Of a stretch of 64,000 nt of DNA, positions 3,062 through 25,414 are shown in pieces. Every line of letters begins with the position of its first letter. The first letter of the stretch is position 1. Below the pieces are notes generated by a model. That model searched no databases, had not been told where the DNA came from, and worked only from the letters and a program-made list of their open reading frames with translations. The stretch is from an uncultured Verrucomicrobiae bacterium (lineage in GTDB: Bacteria > Verrucomicrobiota > Verrucomicrobiia > Chthoniobacterales > JAFAMB01): contig CAVXLD010000007.1 of the NCBI GenBank assembly GCA_963762565.1, forward strand, positions 384,001-448,000, in the 5' to 3' direction. Both the position numbers and the translations under genes were made by a program.

Positions 3062-4201
3062 TTACCGCTGCTCGATCGGAATGACGGGACGGGCGTCCGG
3101 TCCAATGTAGTCAGCACTTGGACGGATCAATTTATTATTGGCGCGCTGTTCCTTGACGTGGGCGGACCAGCCGGTTACCCGCGATAACACGAAGATCGGA
3201 GTAAACAACGGCGTTGGAATACCCATGAAGTGGTAGGCAGAAGCCGAATAGAAGTCTGCGTTTGCAAAGAGCCCTTTTTTCTCTTTCATGATTCGTTCGA
3301 TCTCCTCGGAAACCGCGAACAGATAGCCGTCAGCTTCCTTTGCCGAAGGCGCGAGTTTGCGGGCGCATTCCTTGATGATGGCATTGCGCGGGTCAGAATA
3401 GCGGTAGACGGCGTGCCCAAACCCCATGATCTTTTCTTTCCGCTCCAAGGTGTCAAAGATGGCGTCGCGTGCTTCTCGCGAAGTCTTGAATTTTGAGATC
3501 ATCGCCATCGCGGCTTCATTCGCCCCTCCGTGTAGCGGTCCGCGTAAAGTACCGATCGCCCCGGTGATGCAGGAGTAGAAATCCGAAAGCGTCGCGGCGC
3601 AGACTCGCGCCGTAAATGTGGAAGCGTTGAACTCGTGCTCGGCATAGAGAATCAGCGAGGTGTCCATGCAACGCTGATGATCAGCGGGAGGCTTCACCTC
3701 GTTGAGTAAGGTCAGCAAGTCGCCCGCCAATGTATCCTCATCGGTCTCGGTCTCGATTCGTTTGCCGCCATGGTGAGCAAAGTGATACCAGTAGCAAAGC
3801 ATGGAGGGCAGACTGGCCAGTAACCGCTCAGCGATGGCATCTTGCTGCATGAAAGCGAACTCCGGTTCCAGTACGCCTAGCATCGATGTGCCGGTCCGGA
3901 GCACGTCCATCGGCTGGGTTTCCCTGGGAATGCGCTCCAGCACTTCTTTGAGCGCCGGCGGCAGAAGTCGCAACCTTTTCAGCCGTTGCTTGAAATCGTG
4001 CAGCTCTTGCCGGTCTGGCAGGTTACCATTCAACAGGAGGTGCGCGACCTCTTCGAAAGTGGTGTTTTCCGCGAGGTCCTCAATATTATAACCGCGGTAA
4101 GTCAGGCCCACACCTTCCTTACCGACGGTGCAAATAGCGGTCGAACCTGCGGATTGTCCGCGCAGCCCGCCCGGGGAACTGATTGGCTTAGCGTCGCTCA
4201 T
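3062..4201 (-). CDS. prpC: 2-methylcitrate synthase
   Basis: GLRGQSAG N-terminus, YAEHEFNASTF, GPLHGGANE, MGFGHAVY, NKLIRPSADY. Confidence 0.9.
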   Translation of the reverse strand: MSDAKPISSPGGLRGQSAGSTAICTVGKEGVGLTYRGYNIEDLAENTTFEEVAHLLLNGNLPDRQELHDFKQRLKRLRLLPPALKEVLERIPRETQPMDVLRTGTSMLGVLEPEFAFMQQDAIAERLLASLPSMLCYWYHFAHHGGKRIETETDEDTLAGDLLTLLNEVKPPADHQRCMDTSLILYAEHEFNASTFTARVCAATLSDFYSCITGAIGTLRGPLHGGANEAAMAMISKFKTSREARDAIFDTLERKEKIMGFGHAVYRYSDPRNAIIKECARKLAPSAKEADGYLFAVSEEIERIMKEKKGLFANADFYSASAYHFMGIPTPLFTPIFVLSRVTGWSAHVKEQRANNKLIRPSADYIGPDARPVIPIEQR

Positions 4202-4463: not shown

Positions 4464-5402
4464 ATGGAACTTCGCCACGCGCGGTATTTCGTCGCAGTTG
4501 CCGAAGAACTCAATTTCCGGCGTGCCGCCGCGCGTCTTCGTCTGGCCCAGCCATCGCTCAGCACGCAGATTCGCTTGTTAGAAGAAGACGTCGGAGTTCA
4601 ACTGCTTGAGCGAGACAGTCATAAAGTCGAATTGACTCCTGCGGGCCAGAGCTTTCTCGAAGGGTGCCGAAGGCTGCTTCAGGATGCCGACAGCTACGCG
4701 GTCACGGCGCGCCAGATTGCTCGCGGGGAGAGCATACCTCTGTCAATCGGCTTTGTTCCTTCGCTCGCTCACGGGCTGCTGCCGAGCGTTCTGCGGCGTT
4801 TTCGGCAACGATTTCCAGACGTAAAACTTCTTCTGAATGAAATGGATTCAACGGCTCAAATCGAGCAGATCGCCGGGAATCGCATTGACCTGGGCTTAAT
4901 CGGGCTTGGGTTACCGAAAGCGATGCCGGAACTGGAAATTGTCGTGGTAGCCGAAGAGCGCTTGGTGGCGGCCATCCCCCAGGATCATCCCCTGGCGCGG
5001 AGACCGCGGAAGGTAATCCCATTAAAGACCTTGGCGGCTGAACATTTTCTGCTCGGTTCGAGATTGAACGCACCGGTATTCAATCCCTGGATTATCGTCT
5101 TATGCCAGCAGGCTGGATTTCAGCCCCACGTACTTCAAGAGTCGGGCCAACCAATGACGGTGCTGAACTACGTCGCGGCGGGTCTAGGGATAACTATTTT
5201 GCCGGAACAATTCAGTCGTTTAGTGACGGCCGGCATCCGTTTTATACCATTAGCTCGGCCGACACCCGGGTATCGCTATTGCGCGGCTCGTATGCGGCAC
5301 AATCGCAATCCAGTTGTGGCAAATTTTATCCGGATCGCCGGCGAGGTTGGTAAGGGCGTTCGAGGCAGCGGCGAAGCCGTTTGTCCCGTAGGGACTAAAT
5401 GA
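4464..5402 (+). CDS. LysR family transcriptional regulator
   Basis: MELRHARYFVAVAEELNFRRAA...QPSLSTQIRLLE HTH; stop codon lies inside the adjacent REP arm. Confidence 0.95.
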   Translation: MELRHARYFVAVAEELNFRRAAARLRLAQPSLSTQIRLLEEDVGVQLLERDSHKVELTPAGQSFLEGCRRLLQDADSYAVTARQIARGESIPLSIGFVPSLAHGLLPSVLRRFRQRFPDVKLLLNEMDSTAQIEQIAGNRIDLGLIGLGLPKAMPELEIVVVAEERLVAAIPQDHPLARRPRKVIPLKTLAAEHFLLGSRLNAPVFNPWIIVLCQQAGFQPHVLQESGQPMTVLNYVAAGLGITILPEQFSRLVTAGIRFIPLARPTPGYRYCAARMRHNRNPVVANFIRIAGEVGKGVRGSGEAVCPVGTK

Positions 5403-6411
5403 GGATAGCCAGGCAATTTATTGCCGGGATGCGTGTAAAAAGTCGTCCCGTCCCAGCGGGACGGTATGATTCAGTCGGTTAACGGCGTCCTGAGATCCAA
5501 GGCATAGTCAGGGTAAAGACCACACCGTCCCTCCGGGACGGGACGTTTTTTTCTAACCTATTCCAGGCAATGAATTGCCAGGCTAGTGCGCCGTGGAACG
5601 CGCATCACAGCAGGTGAGAGTCCTGCATTGTTAAACCGTGAAAGAACAAGAAGTACAAACTAAGGGCGTCGTCGAGAGGCGGGGTCTGAAGCAACCGAGT
5701 ACGAGACACCTAGTCCGCAACGCAAGTGAACACGATTCGGCAAGGCAAGCTGGTGAGCCTGCTAGCCAAGAGCGAAACCAAGTCCGCCAAGAGCGGAACC
5801 AGTGGCATTCACAGAGCACGGGAAAGGATGGCCATTGGAGCTTGTCGGGTGGTTGGTGGTGGAATGGGAGTCGAAGTGATGAGCGGTTAACACGGGAGAA
5901 CCACGTAGAGAACGAGACTGGCGTTCATTCCGCTGAGAGGGCAAAGAGGGCGGACAAAGAACCAGGCTACGTGGAAGTCAGAGCGTCCATAGTAGCGAAG
6001 AAGCGGGGTAACGCCCGTGGAGCCAAGGGACGTAGGAAGATAGAACGAATCAGGTCAGCCGGAAGGAAGAAACCCCCGTTAGTGATCAACCTCTTGAGAG
6101 CTCGATCTATACAAGGGTGGAGAACTCTGTCCCGCGAAGGGAGCACAGAGGAATACCTTCCAGCCAACACTGATCCATTGCTGGCAGGCTGCCGCAAACG
6201 GCAGTCAGACACCAGGGAAAAGCAAGCCCGATGTCGCCGAACCTCGAACTTTCTCGTTGAGGTTCCCAGGTTCAATTCGGCATGTCAGTCTCACTGTAGA
6301 CCCTATCGACTGGAGAGCCGGATGCGGGAAAACCGCCTGTCCGGTTCGGAGGGAGGGGCGGCTCCAATACAGTCGTCCCTACCCCTATCCTTCATTCAGT
6401 CCCTTCGGGAC
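5383..6411. mobile_element. non-autonomous REPIN-like element (GTCCC-NNN-GGGAC family), right arm interrupted by a group II intron
   Basis: Left arm gtcccgtagggactaaatgaggatagccaggcaatttattgccggga; right arm ttccaggcaatgaattgccaggcta|ccttcattcagtcccttcgggac, split at 5585/6389. Confidence 0.85.
5586..6388 (+). ncRNA. ORF-less group II intron (IIB-like, 803 nt)
   Basis: 5' GTGCG at 5586; GGTGAGAGTCC in DI; GGAAGTCAGAGCGTCCATAGTAGCGAAGAAGCGGGGTAACGCCCGTGGAGCCAAGG (DII/DIII-like); DV GAGCCGGATGCGGGAAAACCGCCTGTCCGGTTC with AGC triad; DVI ending CCCTACCCCTAT. Confidence 0.9.
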
Positions 6412-6456
6412 GGATCCTGCGGTTCAAGGGACACCACCGTTTTTTCAACAGCCCGC

Positions 6457-7365
6457 TTATGCGGCTGGACGCCAGCCAGCATCAGCCCAAAGTTCGCCGC
6501 TGACGGCGGCGTTGGTTAACATAAAACAGATGGCATCGGCAATTTCCTCCGGCTTGATCAACCGTTTCAGTTGCGTTTGCGGAATCACTTTGGTGCGAAT
6601 GTAATCTTCGCCAAGGGCCCGCACCATGGGGGTGTCGGTAAACCCGGGATGGATCACGCTGCAGCGGACCCCGTAATACATGGCCTCCGCCATGAGTGTA
6701 GAAGCAGCGCCTTCCAAACCTGCTTTAGTTGAGGAGTAAGAGATCTGCCCCGCATTGCCAACTGAGGCAATCGAACCAAGGAAAACGACGGCTCCTTGCA
6801 ATCCTTCCTCAGGCTGCCAGCGTTTGAGCCCGCGAGACACCCGATCCTTTGCCACTGCGGCTACAAGCTCGATCGCCCAATAAATCGGAGCGATCATATT
6901 GATTTCCACCACCTTGCGAAAATCATCCATCGGGTACATCACCACTTGGCCGCTCTGTTTATCGACTCTTACTGCCAGGGCGTCTTTGGTGATAGCCGCC
7001 GCCGGCACACAGATGCGCGGCAGGCCTGCCTTCGCCATGATATCGGCGTAAACTTCCTGCCGGAAAGCCGTATCGGTCGTGTCCCCACGATAGGCGATGG
7101 CGACCGCACGGCCAAACTCCGTATTGAGGTCGCGGGCCACTTGCGCAACCCGGTCACTGAAATCCACCATGGCGATACCAGCTGCCCCGCGCCTTGCCAT
7201 GTCGAGAGCCAAAGCTTGACCAATGCCGCCGGCGGCTCCCGTGATAACGGCAACTTGTCCTTTGATCGTTTGCATATGTAGAACGCTATCTGACGTCTCC
7301 AGGGTGCCAGCTTTCTGGCTAGCGAGGCCCGGCTCCTCGATAGTTCCAGGAATAATCGAGTTCAT
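6457..7365 (-). CDS. SDR family oxidoreductase (3-oxoacyl/acetoacetyl-CoA reductase-like)
   Basis: TGAAGGIG, YSSTK, PGFTDTPM; alternative start at 7275; paralog of 17254-18075. Confidence 0.9.
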   Translation of the reverse strand: MNSIIPGTIEEPGLASQKAGTLETSDSVLHMQTIKGQVAVITGAAGGIGQALALDMARRGAAGIAMVDFSDRVAQVARDLNTEFGRAVAIAYRGDTTDTAFRQEVYADIMAKAGLPRICVPAAAITKDALAVRVDKQSGQVVMYPMDDFRKVVEINMIAPIYWAIELVAAVAKDRVSRGLKRWQPEEGLQGAVVFLGSIASVGNAGQISYSSTKAGLEGAASTLMAEAMYYGVRCSVIHPGFTDTPMVRALGEDYIRTKVIPQTQLKRLIKPEEIADAICFMLTNAAVSGELWADAGWRPAA

Positions 7366-7524
7366 AACTTTAAATTACAATCCTCTGATTGGTTGTCTCG
7401 ATTTTTTTGCATTAGCGTCAGTCTTTTTTTGCGATTGCAGTATGATTTTGACAAAGGAGGGCGACCGGCCGAAGCTTGGTGGTCCCTGACATCGACGGGG
7501 AGCCGTTCTTTGGAAAGCGACAAC

Positions 7525-8154
7525 ATGGCGAATAGCACGGACAACGACGAACCTCGAACCCTGGAAATCCGGAAATACCAAAACCGGCGCTACTACGATA
7601 GCACTCGCAGTCAACACCTCAGCCTGCAGCAAATTCACAAGTTAATCATCGAGGGATACAATATCCGGGTGTTGGACGCCAAGACCAACGAGGATATCAC
7701 AGCAAAGGTTCTCACACAGATTCTCCTCGAATACGAGCCGGTTAAATTGACGATGTTCTCTAACGAATTGCTGACTCGAGCGATTCGTGTAAACGACCGA
7801 TTGCTTAAAGATTTCGTTGACGTTTACTTTCGCCAGGCGTTCGAGGCATTCTGTGGATCACAACGGCATGTCGATCAGATGCTGCGACAGGCTCATCATT
7901 TAACCTCCTTCCTGCCCGCAGCGGCATCAGCAGCCAATCTCTTCCGGCCATGGGTGCCCCTGACCACGCCGTTCTCGCCGCAGCCGGCGCCGGGCAGCGA
8001 ATCAGGCGCGGATACCGGCGCCGCCGCGGTGCAAAACGAGATTGCTGCGCTGCGCGAAGAGGTTTCGAAATTAAAGGCCCAATTAAAGCCGGCTGGACGG
8101 CCGCGGGGCAAAAAAAAGAACAGAGACAATCGAGGGATAGCAAATAGCAAATAG
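7525..8154 (+). CDS. phaR: polyhydroxyalkanoate synthesis repressor PhaR
   Basis: IRKYQNRRYYD...IRVLDAKTNEDITAKVLTQI DNA-binding domain. Confidence 0.85.
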   Translation: MANSTDNDEPRTLEIRKYQNRRYYDSTRSQHLSLQQIHKLIIEGYNIRVLDAKTNEDITAKVLTQILLEYEPVKLTMFSNELLTRAIRVNDRLLKDFVDVYFRQAFEAFCGSQRHVDQMLRQAHHLTSFLPAAASAANLFRPWVPLTTPFSPQPAPGSESGADTGAAAVQNEIAALREEVSKLKAQLKPAGRPRGKKKNRDNRGIANSK

Positions 8155-8216
8155 CGGGTAGCAAATACTAGTGTCCCTCTCGAAGGTGTTTCCGAAGGAC
8201 CTGCTATTTGCTATTT
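8137..8216. repeat. inverted 7-mer arrays (TAGCAAA)n / (TTTGCTA)n
   Basis: atagcaaatagcaaatagc ... tgctatttgctattt. Confidence 0.7.
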
Positions 8217-9728
8217 ATGGTCAAACCGGAGCAAACTCATCCCAGTAACCTTAGTACCGCCGCGGATCTGGTAGAATTTCTGACGCTGGAGGCTTGGATT
8301 CCCTCGGCGCACGCTCGCTGGCTCCCGGTTATTAAGGCACTACTGGAAGCCTTTCTGCAGCGGTTTGACTCGGCGTTGCTGGCCCAGCTACTCGACCATC
8401 AGCACACCCTTCCGCCGACCGCGCCGGCCGCTGTGCGCGCCGCCCGAATGGCACGGGAACTAACCGCGTTGCACAAGATCTGTCAGATGCTGGCTCGGAA
8501 CCCGCGGCTTCCAGCAGAGGCTCGGGCAGCGCTCGCGCCCTTGGAAAGCTTGCCACCCGAAGCAATTCCGGATAGCTCCGTTCAGGAAGCCATTGCTCTA
8601 GTTAGAGAGATGCGCCCCGATTTGGAGCTGGACCCGCAGAATCCGAGAGTGGCTCGGGGAAGCGTGGCCGACGTGTTCCGGCTCCGGCATCGAACTTCTG
8701 AAGGCACCGTCATGGCGTTCAAGACCGTGCGGGCCGACGCAATGCTTCGGATTCAAAACGAAGCCGCTGTGTTGATGGAAATGGTTCATGATGCTCCGGC
8801 CGTAGGCGCCCTGGCGGGACCCAATTTCGCAGCTGCACTAGGAGAAGCGCTTCGAGATGCGGCAACTGCGCTTCTCCGCGAAATCGACTTCGCCGGGGAG
8901 GCAGCGAATCTGCAGGAGGCGCGCGCCTTTTATAAATCAAATCGGCGCATCCGCGTTCCTGCACCCGTCGGGGTTCCACTCGATCGCGGAATCTATATGG
9001 AGTTTGTCGAGGCCGCACCGCTTTTCGAGGCTCCGCTCGACGCCGAATCTCGGCGCGATGCTGCCCGGTTGGTCTTTCGACGCCTGCTTCTCGATCCGCT
9101 GTTTTCGGGACTTTCCGAGTCCATTTTTCACGCCGATCCACATGCTGGGAACCTGATGGTGCAAACGCAGAAGCATCGGCCGCTTACGCTGGTGCTCCTG
9201 GATTGGAGCCAAGCCGGCCGGCTTTCCGCGTCGTTACGCCATGCGCTCATTGAACTTTGCCTTTACTGCTTTACCGGCGAAGAGCCGTCGCCCGACCTCC
9301 TGATGCGCCTACTGGAGAGCAATCAGACAGAAATTCGGATCTCGCTGCCTGCGGGAGACGATCCACTGGAGGTTGCGTTTGAAATCGTACAACAACTTGC
9401 GCTGCAGGGCCATCCGGTGCCGCTCGATCTTCTCCTCATGCGCAAATCGTTTATGACGCTGGACGGAATCACGCGCCAGCTCGACCCTGATTTCAATCCT
9501 TGGCAGGAAACGCTTGCCTATGGGTCTGAAATGTTTGCCAGTGAAGCGGTCTTCCGGGGCTGGAGCCTGCCATTCCCATGGCTCGACCGGACCGACTTCT
9601 ATCGTTCCGGGCTCTCCAACCGAGCGCTAGCGGTTCATTTGACCCGTACGATCCCTAAATTTTGTGCAACTGCACAAAATTTGCTGGCCCATTTCCGAAA
9701 TCCATGGGATGTTCATTTAGAGGCCTAG
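8217..9728 (+). CDS. ABC1/UbiB/AarF-family atypical kinase
   Basis: KICQML, ARGSVADV, EIDFAGEA, MEFVE, FHADPHAGNL, LLDW. Confidence 0.8.
   Translation: MVKPEQTHPSNLSTAADLVEFLTLEAWIPSAHARWLPVIKALLEAFLQRFDSALLAQLLDHQHTLPPTAPAAVRAARMARELTALHKICQMLARNPRLPAEARAALAPLESLPPEAIPDSSVQEAIALVREMRPDLELDPQNPRVARGSVADVFRLRHRTSEGTVMAFKTVRADAMLRIQNEAAVLMEMVHDAPAVGALAGPNFAAALGEALRDAATALLREIDFAGEAANLQEARAFYKSNRRIRVPAPVGVPLDRGIYMEFVEAAPLFEAPLDAESRRDAARLVFRRLLLDPLFSGLSESIFHADPHAGNLMVQTQKHRPLTLVLLDWSQAGRLSASLRHALIELCLYCFTGEEPSPDLLMRLLESNQTEIRISLPAGDDPLEVAFEIVQQLALQGHPVPLDLLLMRKSFMTLDGITRQLDPDFNPWQETLAYGSEMFASEAVFRGWSLPFPWLDRTDFYRSGLSNRALAVHLTRTIPKFCATAQNLLAHFRNPWDVHLEA
9658..9681. promoter_or_regulatory. putative PhaR operator, perfect palindrome AATTTTGTGCA-AC-TGCACAAAATT
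   Basis: TGC-N4-GCA core ~100 bp upstream of phasin 1; related boxes at ~14882-14900 and 7430-7439. Confidence 0.6.
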
Positions 9729-9782
9729 GGATTACCGAAAGCCTCACACCGAAAACCAAAAAACTAACTTAAAGAGATACAT

Positions 9783-10253
9783 ATGAGTGCAACCCATAGC
9801 AAAAAGGCAACTGGGACAACGCCCGAGACGTTTAATGACGTCTTTCGTGAGGCGATGCTTTGTTACGAAAAAGCCCTGAAGTCGGGCATTCAATTGCAAG
9901 AGGAATCAGTGAACATGTGGAAAGACCTGCTCACTAAACTTGGCTCCCCTGAGGAGTTCCGAGGCAAACTGGAAGCGATGACCGCAGAGATATTCCCAAC
10001 GACCCGCAAGCGGATGGAGGAATTTGTCGAGACGTTCAACCAGGCGAGCAATCAGACCATTGATCTGTTCGAGAAAACGATGGGCGTTTATCAGGCGTCC
10101 TCGGTAACCGATGCGCAGCACCGTGTGCAAGATCTGATCGAAAGCTCGCTGAGCACCCTGCGGGTTAACGTGCACAGCGCTCTCAACACAAACGCGAAAA
10201 TCATCAGTTCGTGGAAGGAACTTGTTGATCGTTTCGGTCCGGCCGTGAAGTAA
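9783..10253 (+). CDS. phasin-like PHA granule protein (copy 1)
   Basis: Small amphipathic helical protein directly before phaE-phaC; call rests on context. Confidence 0.6.
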   Translation: MSATHSKKATGTTPETFNDVFREAMLCYEKALKSGIQLQEESVNMWKDLLTKLGSPEEFRGKLEAMTAEIFPTTRKRMEEFVETFNQASNQTIDLFEKTMGVYQASSVTDAQHRVQDLIESSLSTLRVNVHSALNTNAKIISSWKELVDRFGPAVK

Positions 10254-10295
10254 CCAACGAGCAGCTGAAACGGAGCTGGTGATAGAACAAATCCT

Positions 10296-10835
10296 ATGAG
10301 CGGTGATATAAACAAGGGCTTCGAGCAGGTAACCGCGTTCCAGAAGCTCTGGCTGGATTCCTTCGGGAAGATGGCGGACGTCTGGTCTCAATATTCACCA
10401 GGTTCTCCGCCTATCGACGAAATGCGGAAGATGCGGGGCGGGATGCTGCAGGTGCTGGCCGAAATCTGGGATGAATACATGCGCACGCCTCAATTCATGG
10501 AAATGATGAAGGCGTCGCTGAACGGCGCCCTCGACCTCAAACGCATGGCTCGGGAAGGCATGAACCGGGTGCATGAACAATTCGAAAACCCCAGCAAAGA
10601 GGATATCGATGGCGTGTTGCTGGCGATCCGGCATGTGGAACGACGGCTCTTAGAGCGACTCGAAGGGCTCGATGACCGGGTAGCAAACCTGGACGAAAAA
10701 ATCGATCGAGTCGATCAGCGGATCGCTAAACAGGAGCATGCTGTCACCAGCCGGAGAGCGACTCCGGAGACGAGGGAACAGAAAACAAACGCTAAGGCGC
10801 CAAAGAGAAGGCGCGGTAAAGCTTCCTCCGGATAG
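10296..10835 (+). CDS. phaE: PHA synthase accessory subunit, short PhaE/PhaR(Bacillus)-like (copy 1)
   Basis: YMRTPQFMEMM...PSKEDIDGVLLAIRHVERRL coiled coil, upstream of phaC. Confidence 0.7.
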   Translation: MSGDINKGFEQVTAFQKLWLDSFGKMADVWSQYSPGSPPIDEMRKMRGGMLQVLAEIWDEYMRTPQFMEMMKASLNGALDLKRMAREGMNRVHEQFENPSKEDIDGVLLAIRHVERRLLERLEGLDDRVANLDEKIDRVDQRIAKQEHAVTSRRATPETREQKTNAKAPKRRRGKASSG

Positions 10836-10856
10836 GCGAACCGGGTTCCCGCTGAA

Positions 10857-11951
10857 ATGGACCAGAAAACTAGCGATGGGGCAGATTGGGAGGCTTGGCA
10901 GGCTTCCTTTGTGGACGAGGCATTCACGAATTTAAGGCGAATCACCAGCATTCCGTTCCTGCCGGAGAAAATGGACCGAGTCCGCAAAGGCGTGACTCCG
11001 CGCGAAGTGGTTTACGAGGAAGACCGGCTGAGAGTTTACCATTACCTCGGAGAGAGTGAACCCAGATTCAAGACGCCGCTCTGTTTCGTGTTTGCCCTGG
11101 TGAACCGGCCATACATCATGGATCTGAAGGAAGGCCGGAGCATCATCGCGCATTACGTTAAAGCCGGCTTCGATACCTATCTGATCGACTGGGGTACGCC
11201 GACGCGAGCCGAACGTTTCCTGACAACAGATGACTATGTCAACGGCTACATGCTGAACGTCGTCAACTATCTGCGGGAAAGGACCGGCTCAAGTAAGATC
11301 AACCTCTTAGGTTACTGCATGGGTGGCACCTTGAGCACGATGTTTACCGCCATCCACCAGAAGCTGATTAAGAATTTGGTGCTGCTGACCACCGGGATTG
11401 ATTACTCAACGCGCGACGGCCTGCTTAATCTGTGGACCGATCCACGTTACTTCGATGTCGATAAATTCGTCGATACCATGGGCAATATCCCAGCGGAGTT
11501 TCTTCAGGTCGCGTTTCTCATGTTGAAGCCCATCGCCAACCTGGTGGAAAAGCCCATTAACCTGATGGAAAACATTCACCGAGACGAATTTGTCGATGAT
11601 TACCTCTACATGGAAACGTGGCTGAACGACAACATTCCTGTGCCGGGCGAGGTCTATCGCGAGTTTGCGAAATATCTCTTTCAACAAAACTTGCTGGTGA
11701 AGAATCGAATGCCCTTGGGCCGGCACCTGGTTGATTTGCGCAAGATCACCTGTCCACTGTTGAACCTGATGGCCCGTAACGACCACCTGGTGCCATGTTC
11801 CCAGACCGAGCCGCTAAACGATTTGGTCAGTTCCAAGGACAAAGAAAAGATCATCTGGCCAGCCGGGCACATCGGATTGGCTGTCAGTTCAAAGGCTCAA
11901 AAGGAGCTATGGCCGCGGGCGGTAGAATGGCTCAGCCGGCGTACCGACTGA
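10857..11951 (+). CDS. phaC: class III/IV PHA synthase PhaC (copy 1)
   Basis: GVTPREVVYEED, ALVNRPYIMDL, GYCMGG lipase box, DHLVP, GHIGL; 364 aa. Confidence 0.95.
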   Translation: MDQKTSDGADWEAWQASFVDEAFTNLRRITSIPFLPEKMDRVRKGVTPREVVYEEDRLRVYHYLGESEPRFKTPLCFVFALVNRPYIMDLKEGRSIIAHYVKAGFDTYLIDWGTPTRAERFLTTDDYVNGYMLNVVNYLRERTGSSKINLLGYCMGGTLSTMFTAIHQKLIKNLVLLTTGIDYSTRDGLLNLWTDPRYFDVDKFVDTMGNIPAEFLQVAFLMLKPIANLVEKPINLMENIHRDEFVDDYLYMETWLNDNIPVPGEVYREFAKYLFQQNLLVKNRMPLGRHLVDLRKITCPLLNLMARNDHLVPCSQTEPLNDLVSSKDKEKIIWPAGHIGLAVSSKAQKELWPRAVEWLSRRTD

Positions 11952-11960
11952 CTGATCGAT

Positions 11961-12402
11961 CCTAGCCAGGCAATTTATTGTCTGGTGTGCATGCGCAAGA
12001 AGGGACCTCGTCCCGTAGGAACTGAATGATCGTAGCCAGGCAGTTCACTGCCTGGAACCTCGCACCTAAGTCGGACCCGTCTCCTAGAGACGGTATGATT
12101 GGTGGCTCGTCCTCGTGCTCGTTGAGCGCTAACGCACAGGGACTGGTGTCGTGATTGGAGAAAATCGAATCGCTGGGCAACTCTCGAACGCTCGGCAGAA
12201 CACGCTTTCGAACACGAGCAGGAACACGCGATCCATTAACTAATCATACCGTCTCTACGAGACGGGATCGATCTAGGCGGGAAGTTCCAGGCAGTGAACT
12301 GCCTGGCTATCGATCACTTAGTCCCTACGGGACGGACACCGCCCTTTGCAGCATCCCAGGCAGTTGAAACTGCCTGGCCACCATCATTAGTCCCTACGGG
12401 AC
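11961..12402. mobile_element. nested REPIN-like elements (GTCCC-NNN-GGGAC family)
   Basis: Inner element 12010-12333 lies within outer arms at ~11961 and ~12355-12402; the same tagccaggc...gcctgg hairpins recur. Confidence 0.85.
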
Positions 12403-24551: not shown

Positions 24552-24583
24552 CCTCAGCAAAAACCGTCACCAGCGCGTGTATT

Positions 24584-25344
24584 GTCCCGTAGGGACAGAA
24601 CGATAGTAGCCAGGCACGTTGTGCCTGGGATGGGTAAAAAGACGGCTCGTCCCGTAGGGACGATTGAGACGCGCATTAGTCCAGGGCGTATTTCTCCTCA
24701 AAATCCAATCCGTGCCGTTTCAGAATAGCCAAATACTCTTCCCGAAAGGTCCGAGTGCGATGATGCTCCGGTTGGTTTTGGATGTATGCCATCGTCTCCG
24801 AAAGCTGGGAGGTGCTGACGCTGAAAGCGCCGTAGCCCTCTTGCCAACTAAAGTTACGGAATTGCCGAAAATTCTGGTGGATCCAGGCCGAGGATCCACC
24901 CTTGATCAATTGAATGGCTTTAGCAACGGACAGTGTCGTCGGCATCGATAGGAGCAGATGAACGTGGTCTGCGACCCCACCGACGCATCTTGGTTTGATG
25001 CCGTTTTGTTTGGCGATGCCGCCTAGGAAAGGCCATAGACGTTCTCTAAGTTCAGGGTTCAGAACCGGGACGCGCTCTTTGGTGGTGAAAACACAATGGA
25101 TGTTCAGAGAGAAAAACGTATTCGGCATAGACTAGAGATTATCCGAGATCACCAGATAAAGAAACATATTTTATTACTGTGTTTACGATGCAAACCGGCG
25201 ACCGAAATTTTAACTGTCCCAACGGGCGAGATGTTCGCAATTTACCGTTCGGCCGGAATCAAGCGTCCCTACGGGACGCGATTCTTTCTCTGGCGCATCC
25301 CAGGCACTTCGTGCCTGGCTACTATCGTTCTGTCCCTACGGGAC
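24584..25344. mobile_element. RAYT/IS200-like element with ~80-bp inverted arms
   Basis: gtcccgtagggacagaacgatagtagccaggcac... and ...gtgcctggctactatcgttctgtccctacgggac flank the transposase gene. Confidence 0.9.
24676..25128 (-). CDS. tnpA: IS200/IS605-family Y1 HUH transposase (REP-associated tyrosine transposase-like)
   Basis: HCVFTTK, DHVHLL (HUH), WQEGYGAFSVS, YIQNQPEHH (catalytic Tyr). Confidence 0.92.
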   Translation of the reverse strand: MPNTFFSLNIHCVFTTKERVPVLNPELRERLWPFLGGIAKQNGIKPRCVGGVADHVHLLLSMPTTLSVAKAIQLIKGGSSAWIHQNFRQFRNFSWQEGYGAFSVSTSQLSETMAYIQNQPEHHRTRTFREEYLAILKRHGLDFEEKYALD

Positions 25345-25414
25345 GCGATCGTAGTCGACAACGGCTAAGAGGGTAGGTCGAGGTCCGATGTCTCGGTTGA
25401 ATCCCGAAAGCGCT

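Follow-up and report, generated by a model that had tools for sequence, protein, structure and literature searches.

The 64,000-nucleotide window analysed here (contig CAVXLD010000007.1 of an uncultured Verrucomicrobiae bacterium, assembly GCA_963762565.1, positions 384,001 to 448,000) contains at its positions 5586-6388, on the forward strand, a group II intron of 803 nt without an open reading frame (ORF). It is inserted precisely into a repetitive extragenic palindrome (REP) module that forms, together with a second module in inverted orientation, the arrangement known as a REPIN (REP doublet forming hairpins). Taken as a whole, the explanation that we consider probable is that of a compact group II intron from which the gene for the intron-encoded protein (IEP) has been deleted, lying in a REP module and having chosen its target in a manner like that of class C (IIC) introns. 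Thus, what we describe is apparently a known hairpin-targeting habit extended to a REP module and not a new kind of element.

The intron and the site of its insertion

The Rfam model for domains V and VI (DV/DVI) of group II introns, RF00029, matches positions 6313-6388 (+) with 54.8 bits, the gathering score being 40. The match covers all of the model (positions 1-77 of 77) and is the sole one at gathering level that Rfam gives across the 64-kb window. The intron begins with GTGCG at 5586 and ends with CCTAT at 6388, in keeping with the 5' GUGYG and 3' AY ends of group II introns, and the fold of DVI leaves the branch-point A6381 bulged, 7 nt upstream of the 3' splice site. None of the Rfam models for domains I to IV (DI-DIV) reaches its gathering score with the window copy (RF02003 has 29.7 bits against 49), and the same is true of its relatives (the best being 31.3 against 32, with RF02001). 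When DI, DII, DIII, DV and DVI of the window copy were each folded separately, they gave the architecture of the intron family described below, and the covariation-backed structure has the six domains expected of a group II intron.

The 293-aa frame at 5638-6519 has no Pfam match, and tblastn of the IEPs of two relatives against the 64-kb window finds nothing below E 0.057; therefore the intron is ORF-less and there is no reverse transcriptase (RT) gene nearby. Pfam and tblastn searches for a remnant of the IEP in the 269-nt DIV found none. On plasmids, blastn with the intron detected only DV matches of 46-51 nt, in seven records. An initial annotation, made from the letters of the sequence alone, had proposed an ORF-less group II intron with canonical ends, DV and DVI and no RT, and had suggested Rfam models as a means of checking it; each of these points is sustained by the covariance match, the GTGCG end, the bulged A6381 and the absence of an IEP.

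Both flanks of the intron are members of a family of modules of about 90 nt with three hairpins and a conserved order: hairpin A (GTCCCnnnGGGAC), about 10 nt, TAGCC leading into hairpin B (CCAGGCA...TGCCTGG), about 20 nt and then a third, A-like hairpin. Sequences characteristic of these modules are greatly over-represented in the window: GTCCCNNNGGGAC occurs 10 times (0.09 expected), a 20-nt motif of the hairpin-B region seven times (0.08 expected) and the 10-mer TGCCWGGCTA likewise seven times (0.23 expected), always inside a module and in one case occupied by the intron. The 64 kb, to which this count refers, hold at least seven modules, three in inverted pairs, as is typical of REPIN/RAYT repeats (RAYT, REP-associated tyrosine transposase), and the two arms at 5383-6411 are mutually inverted, which is the arrangement of a REPIN.

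Removing the intron in silico gives a right arm (5523-5585 joined to 6389-6411) that aligns end to end (about 90 nt) with the left arm at 5383-5468, and also with the modules at 12009-12100, 12240-12333, 12355-12402, 24584-24661 and 25265-25344. An empty site of 35+35 nt matches 12057-12009 across the junction (85.7% over 49 nt, E 7e-6), as well as 5425-5383 (86% over 43 nt, E 1e-4). As these junction-spanning matches are to uninterrupted modules, the insertion was precise, with neither duplication nor loss. The insertion point is 3 nt past the stem-loop at 5563-5582, directly after GGCTA and between two hairpins of the module. These alignments agree in full with the initial annotation, which had the intron inserted precisely into one arm of a REPIN-like inverted repeat, just 3' of a stem-loop, with the joining of 5585 to 6389 restoring an arm that resembles the left arm and the intact modules. 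The occupied arm has an A at position -6 (5580), where all six of the other 10-mer copies have a T, and because of this A there is an A.A mismatch in its hairpin B' (5563-5582). The features of the window that concern the intron and the modules are collected below.

Table. Positions of the intron, its predicted exon contacts, the REP modules and the transposase gene in the window (EBS, exon-binding site; IBS, intron-binding site)
Feature	Position	Strand	Details
Left REP module	5383-5468	+	hairpin A 5383-5395; TAGCC and hairpin B 5406-5428; hairpin C about 5446-5465
Right REP module, 5' part (5' exon)	5523-5585	+	hairpin C' 5525-5541; T-run to 5551; hairpin B' 5563-5582
IBS1 GGCTA	5581-5585	+	end of the 5' exon
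ORF-less group II intron	5586-6388	+	GTGCG to CCTAT, 803 nt
Domain I	5586-5896	+	separate fold has the family consensus architecture
Segment with second GGCAA	5744-5751	+	5' half of a helix of 8 bp, paired with 5839-5846
EBS1 TAGCC(A)	5763-5768	+	lies in the terminal loop (9 nt, 5761-5769) of the covarying hairpin 5752-5779; pairs with IBS1 GGCTA
EBS3 candidate G5852	5852	+	pairs with the first 3'-exon base, C6389
Domain II	5897-5979	+	consensus helix 18
Domain III	5983-6033	+	block common to most relatives (intron nt 391-454)
Domain IV remnant, ORF-less	6039-6307	+	no recognisable IEP remnant
Domain V	6315-6347	+	AGC triad, 2-nt bulge
Domain VI	6348-6386	+	bulged A at 6381
Right REP module, 3' part (3' exon)	6389-6411	+	IBS3 C6389; 10-nt spacer; hairpin A' 6399-6411
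Three uninterrupted modules	12009-12100, 12240-12333, 12355-12402		first two are another inverted pair
Y1 (IS200/RAYT-type) transposase gene	24676-25128	-	150 aa; PF01797, 1.5e-28
Modules flanking the Y1 gene	24584-24661, 25265-25344		opposite orientations

Relatives, exon-binding sites and the choice of target

Scanning genome contigs for the DV pattern yielded at least 120 stretches, 80 of them with full flanks, and none of the at least 120 loci listed is near-identical to the window intron. Among the matches listed, to which all of the following counts of relatives refer, 24 loci share its DVI type; they come from Acidobacteriota, Verrucomicrobiota, Lentisphaerota and Planctomycetota, along with one metagenome-assembled genome (MAG) of Eisenbacteria and one of Acidimicrobiia. 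The 5' end could be mapped in eight of these relatives, five of them ORF-less (L031, L069, L077, L073 and L062) and three IEP-encoding (L066, L064 and L012), and with the window intron they make up the nine-member set on which the analyses below are based. Two other relatives, L032 and L059, have 5' ends that could not be mapped and are outside the 5'-junction counts, while L056 and L037 have too little upstream sequence for an analysis of that junction. Eight of the 17 readable family members are ORF-less (the window intron, the five just named, L059 and L087), and IEP sequence is present in L066, L012, L056, L032, L064, L037, L110, L081 and L107; this count omits eight members, namely the unreadable L067 and seven in which the contig stops no more than 130 nt from DV.

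The IEPs of the relatives have 444-459 aa, no endonuclease domain and 384-396 bits with the group II RT/maturase model TIGR04416. Their nearest solved structures are two IIC RTs (GsI-IIC RT with 212 bits and another with 205), followed by the IIB RT TeI4h (151) and LtrA (138). RT-encoding relatives, which the initial annotation had wished to see searched for, thus exist in the family (L066, L064, L012) and not in the window. The ORF-less L031 and L077 are 81% identical overall and 65% in DIV and have unrelated flanks; these related DIV remnants at unrelated loci suggest that the ORF-less form persists at different sites. In L059 only residues 3-50 of the IEP are left, and so loss of the ORF by internal deletion does occur in this family.

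The alignment of DI-DIII from the nine members has 86 consensus pairs, with 93.4% of its cells paired, and there are compensatory changes at 52 of these 86 pairs, compared with 22.5 +/- 3.1 in shuffled alignments and at most 18 in slid controls. The terminal loop that carries TAGCCA in the window copy is complementary to the last five bases of the 5' exon in seven of the nine members, which have seven different IBS1 sequences. The duplex with the cognate exon is more stable (-6.1 kcal/mol) than that with non-cognate exons (-3.8 kcal/mol; permutation p 0.001), and an unbiased scan of all of DI gave a cognate exon signal only at this loop. Such covariation with the flanks confirms the prediction of TAGCC(A) as EBS1. 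Its sixth base would pair with the T at -6 of the six unoccupied 10-mer copies, giving 6 bp there and 5 bp at the occupied site. Of the 574 columns of the alignment just one, column 355 (G5852 in the window copy), is complementary in every one of the nine members to the base that opens the 3' exon, and we propose it as EBS3.

A search across DI for an EBS2, in the form of complementarity to exon positions -6 to -14, revealed no cognate signal (p 0.35; the DI-wide scan was negative as well). The initial annotation had put TAGCCA at 5763-5768 and GGCAA at 5739-5743 and 5744-5748, positions that are right, and had offered them as candidates for EBS1 and EBS2, respectively, with burial in a stem as the ground for abandoning either. 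TAGCCA, in its terminal loop, has held up well. GGCAA is rejected on that very ground: the second copy belongs to the covarying helix 5744-5751/5839-5846, the hypervariable equivalents of which find their pairing partner within the same member in nine of nine cases (-10.2 versus -6.6 kcal/mol, permutation p 5e-5), the first copy (5739-5743) lies partly within consensus helix 14, and no cognate partner exists at exon positions -6 to -14.

Considering the flanks of the family as a whole, a stem-loop ends 0-7 nt before the 5' junction in all nine members, and in seven of the nine the minimum free energy of positions -40 to -1 is in the lowest 10% of local 40-nt windows. These upstream hairpins are unrelated in sequence. 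A hairpin on the downstream side was considered as a further family rule and rejected, only four of the nine members being at or below the 10th percentile. With unrelated hairpins in nine of nine members, cognate EBS1 and EBS3 and no EBS2, the family rule is therefore a hairpin, a short IBS1 and IBS3. Recognition is thus IIC-like (hairpin, short IBS1 and IBS3), and the REP arm is the hairpin of the window copy. The initial annotation had also envisaged a tabulation of insertion flanks; all nine members do follow a hairpin, but the relatives do not lie in this REP family and their hairpins are unrelated in sequence.

The history that we propose is as follows. The intron reverse-spliced into a REP module directly after the hairpin and GGCTA and before the second hairpin, a target chosen by means of the upstream stem-loop, a 5-bp EBS1-IBS1 duplex (6 bp at the other copies) and the single EBS3-IBS3 pair, with no EBS2-IBS2 pairing. 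Since GGCTA follows hairpin B in every module but one, the REP modules of this genome would offer many equivalent sites, and EBS1 would fit the consensus module better than the copy that is actually occupied. Devoid of an RT/maturase, the intron could splice efficiently or move only with the IEP of a related intron, encoded elsewhere in the genome, acting in trans and would otherwise be a stranded copy; such mobilisation in trans is plausible. The intron is co-oriented with, and downstream of, a gene for a LysR-type regulator, and it would be transcribed only by read-through because it lies behind the terminator-like hairpin of the REPIN; this would amount to the 'hiding' lifestyle of class C introns.

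Some side observations on the relatives deserve mention. In L032 (5059-6528), from a Verrucomicrobiae MAG, the IEP gene is interrupted by an opposite-strand ORF of 489 aa that looks like a transposase gene. The 45 nt immediately 3' of the intron in L064 (3872-3963) occur twice in tandem, and the upstream hairpin of this same member recurs at least three more times within its 8-kb locus, so that this relative too lies among local repeats. A second group, which has more loci and is drawn mainly from MAGs of Acidobacteriaceae, has the same DV with a different, longer 3' tail that starts with GATGAGCGGGAACAGGAAAC (L053, L007, L008, L013, L015, L018, L035, L036, L039, L046, L051, L058, L080 and others). 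L053/L054 have two DVs of this type in tandem, 811 nt apart (4001-4031 and 4812-4842 in L053), leaving no space for an ORF, and L039, L080, L018 and L036 of this group have an IEP about 40% identical to that of L066.

The transposase, the repeats and the host locus

The Y1 transposase gene, about 19 kb from the intron, is flanked by opposite-orientation modules (24584-24661 and 25265-25344) of the very family that bears the intron, as expected of a RAYT in its REP context. Its protein scores 72.3 bits with the NCBIfam IS200 model NF033573 (cut-off 55) and only 24.6 bits with the curated RAYT model NF047646 (cut-off 80). The label RAYT thus rests on the context and not on a protein model, the NF047646 cut-off having been missed. 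Of the RAYT-associated REP arms of the initial annotation, the association with a Y1 transposase stands, the same modules flanking it, but the protein itself is below the RAYT model.

The modules also resemble a motif known from another context. They align over all 46 positions of the Rfam family RF01687 (Acido-Lenti-1), with 28.7 bits at 25300-25345 (+), 23.2 at 24583-24628 (-) and 18.8 at 5382-5428 (-); none of these three reaches the gathering score of 37, and we do not count them as members. Acido-Lenti-1, as outlined by Weinberg et al. 2010 (PMC2864571), and the modules of the window are alike in having a P1 hairpin, GGCUA, about 10 nt and a P2 hairpin. The intron splits this Acido-Lenti-1-like architecture right behind GGCUA, and its two halves are separate weak matches to RF01687. 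Acido-Lenti-1 is filed as a candidate sRNA, whereas the same architecture in the window is dispersed, flanks a transposase and behaves as a REP/REPIN repeat. Acido-Lenti-1 RNAs are sometimes found near group II introns.

The segment 5383-6411 lies between two convergent genes, one for a LysR-type regulator (4464-5402, +) and the other for a short-chain dehydrogenase (6457-7365, -), and the stop codon of the former (5400-5402) falls inside the left REP module. The inner hairpins of the REPIN each precede a T-run on their own strand (5525-5551 on the + strand and 5463-5444 on the - strand), and a bidirectional terminator-like structure thus separates the two genes. Another module pair (12009-12100/12240-12333) encloses a second inverted repeat, within 12060-12270, that consists of a CCGTCTC...GAGACGG hairpin with TATGATT on each side; about 150 nt of non-repeat sequence lie inside it, and the whole resembles a longer REPIN variant or perhaps a nested element. 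Downstream, the genes at 7393-11951 suggest a polyhydroxyalkanoate locus: a PhaR-like polyhydroxybutyrate regulator domain is encoded at 7393-8154, an ABC1-type kinase at 8208-9728 and, at 10857-11951, an alpha/beta hydrolase the N-terminal part of which matches PhaC.

Alternative histories and known systems

Several observations weigh against the proposal of an IEP-deleted intron that found the REP module by IIC-like means, or at least against parts of it. The REP context is not shared by the family: the 10-mer target of the window is present in none of the 120 loci listed, the relatives being outside this REP family, and Acido-Lenti-1 was found neither at the gathering score in 13 family loci nor at E up to 10 in nine loci. 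As a consequence, REP specificity is a matter of one copy and the fit of its EBS1. The hairpin upstream of the window copy is a weak one as RNA (-7.1 kcal/mol, the 59th percentile of the local background), owing to the A.A mismatch, and in two relatives, L031 and L062, the 5' exon does not match the intron's own EBS1. As to the presumed step in trans, neither a second copy of the intron nor an IEP was seen in the 64-kb window. The window intron is also the most divergent member, being 52-57% identical to its relatives, and in the alignment it forms 62 of the 86 consensus pairs, compared with 70-85 in the others; some decay of this copy may have taken place. Finally, the assignment of the family to IIC is tentative, its IBS1-EBS1 pairing of 5-6 bp being longer than the 3-4 bp that are given for IIC in PMC7923331 (5 bp are found in seven of the nine members and 6 bp would be possible at the six unoccupied sites).

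How far the intron is adapted to its present surroundings is a separate matter. That EBS1 matches the six unoccupied copies fits an intron tuned to the consensus of the module, on the strength of one copy and a short match, and in that sense a REP specialisation is plausible. The stronger version of this idea has the intron as a hyperparasite: a non-autonomous lineage, its EBS1 adapted to the REP/REPIN consensus, that spreads mainly or only among REP arms with an IEP supplied in trans. We take this to be possible, yet on the doubtful side. It would explain why TAGCCA is complementary to all six bases of TGGCTA in the six unoccupied 10-mer copies, and it would profit from the abundance of the target site, present seven times in 64 kb as against 0.23 expected; ORF-less members are moreover common in the family (8/17 readable ones), some of them at unrelated loci, and the hairpin upstream of L064 is likewise part of a locally repeated element. 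However, only one of the seven sites in the window is occupied and a single copy of the intron is seen there, and the relatives follow hairpins of unrelated sequence, which makes the family-level rule a structural one. Moreover, an IBS1 of 5-6 nt is too short to serve as proof of adaptation.

At the other extreme, the window copy could be a dead relic: an autonomous intron that happened to land behind the hairpin of a REP arm, was later stripped of its ORF by a deletion and is now immobile and possibly defective in splicing. This seems to us unlikely, even if the 269-nt DIV has no detectable remnant of the IEP, L059 demonstrates the loss of an ORF by internal deletion in this family, no member diverges more than the window copy or has fewer consensus pairs, and its target is changed at -6, with a weakened hairpin. 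Against a relic, the GTGCG end, the AGC triad and bulge of DV, the bulged A of DVI, the EBS1 loop and EBS3 are all intact, DI folds by itself into the architecture of the family, and EBS1 still matches IBS1 over 5 bp. Lastly, that there was no intron insertion at all, the DV-like match being fortuitous or co-opted and the 803 nt being unrelated DNA between two half-modules, is extremely improbable: it can appeal to the fact that only DV/DVI reach an Rfam gathering score (RF02003 having 29.7 against 49), but it is contradicted by the strong covariation of DI-DIII shared with eight relatives, by the covariation of the EBS1-IBS1 and EBS3-IBS3 pairings with the flanks, at precisely these ends of the 803 nt, and by the rejoining of the flanks to a complete module.

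Returning to the IEP-deleted intron in its REP module, a broader generalisation may be ventured, in a tentative spirit and with no great expectation that all of it will hold. Compact, hairpin-targeting introns of this type might constitute a widespread and largely unrecorded lineage in the Acidobacteriota and in the Planctomycetota, Verrucomicrobiota and Lentisphaerota, about half of them without an IEP, and in some genomes, including that of the window, with an EBS1 tuned to the GGCUA box of two-hairpin REP modules. If this were true, a REPIN population would be a multicopy landing pad for non-autonomous introns, and there would be three tiers of parasitism: a transposase, the REPINs that belong to it and a ribozyme dependent on the RT of another intron. 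It would also account for the reputed occurrence of Acido-Lenti-1 RNAs near group II introns.

With respect to known systems, the literature reports hairpin targeting both in class C and in IEP types close to it, namely g6, U1 and U2 (PMC4424553 and PMC8919778). The likeness of the window family to IIC introns, which insert after terminator and attC stem-loops, is considerable: all nine members have a hairpin a few bases upstream, and the family has a short IBS1, an EBS3-IBS3 pair, no detectable EBS2 and a compact ribozyme. The IEPs of the relatives have no endonuclease domain and IIC RTs as their nearest solved structures, and the window intron itself is intergenic, behind a terminator-like hairpin. 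What distinguishes the window copy, besides the longer EBS1 pairing of its family, is that its hairpin is part of a REP module, being neither an attC site nor the terminator of a gene, and that it has no IEP. In reviews, insertion directed by hairpins, with terminators and attC sites as the targets, counts as the mark of class C. The family of the window intron, which has a longer EBS1 and in which ORF-less members are numerous, follows this rule too, and in the window copy the hairpin so used is that of a REP module.

ORF-less introns are rare in bacteria according to the review PMC4424553, which cites a cyanobacterial case that is served in trans by related IEPs. The window intron is like such trans-served introns in that it has no IEP of its own, retains intact ribozyme domains and belongs to a family with IEP-encoding members, but the frequency of ORF-less members among the matches listed (8/17 readable ones) is at odds with the rarity given there. 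If this pattern holds genome-wide, surveys based on RT genes under-count the ORF-less introns of bacteria.

A full-text literature search, within the journals of the library searched, brought up no report of a group II intron that lies within a REPIN, the closest being an entry in Tobes and Pareja 2006 (PMC1525189). That paper, in its account of elements that target REPs, names ISPpu9, ISPpu10, ISPa11 and IS1397, and also has a group II intron of Pseudomonas putida KT2440 associated with REPs in two of its nine copies. The window thus offers another mobile element within a REP element, and the association of group II introns with REPs had already been tabulated. If our interpretation is correct, a REPIN would give a second mobile element, unrelated to the first, a place to insert safely. 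For the purposes of annotation, a two-hairpin, Acido-Lenti-1-like motif acts here as a transposase-associated repeat. The assignments of EBS1 and EBS3, together with the empty sites in the same window, lead directly to a design for tests of mobility and splicing. In contrast to the association ratio that PMC1525189 gives in the tabulated entry, the present case shows where exactly the junction is, by which pairings the site is recognised and that the intron lies between two hairpins of the module, and it does so for an intron that is ORF-less.

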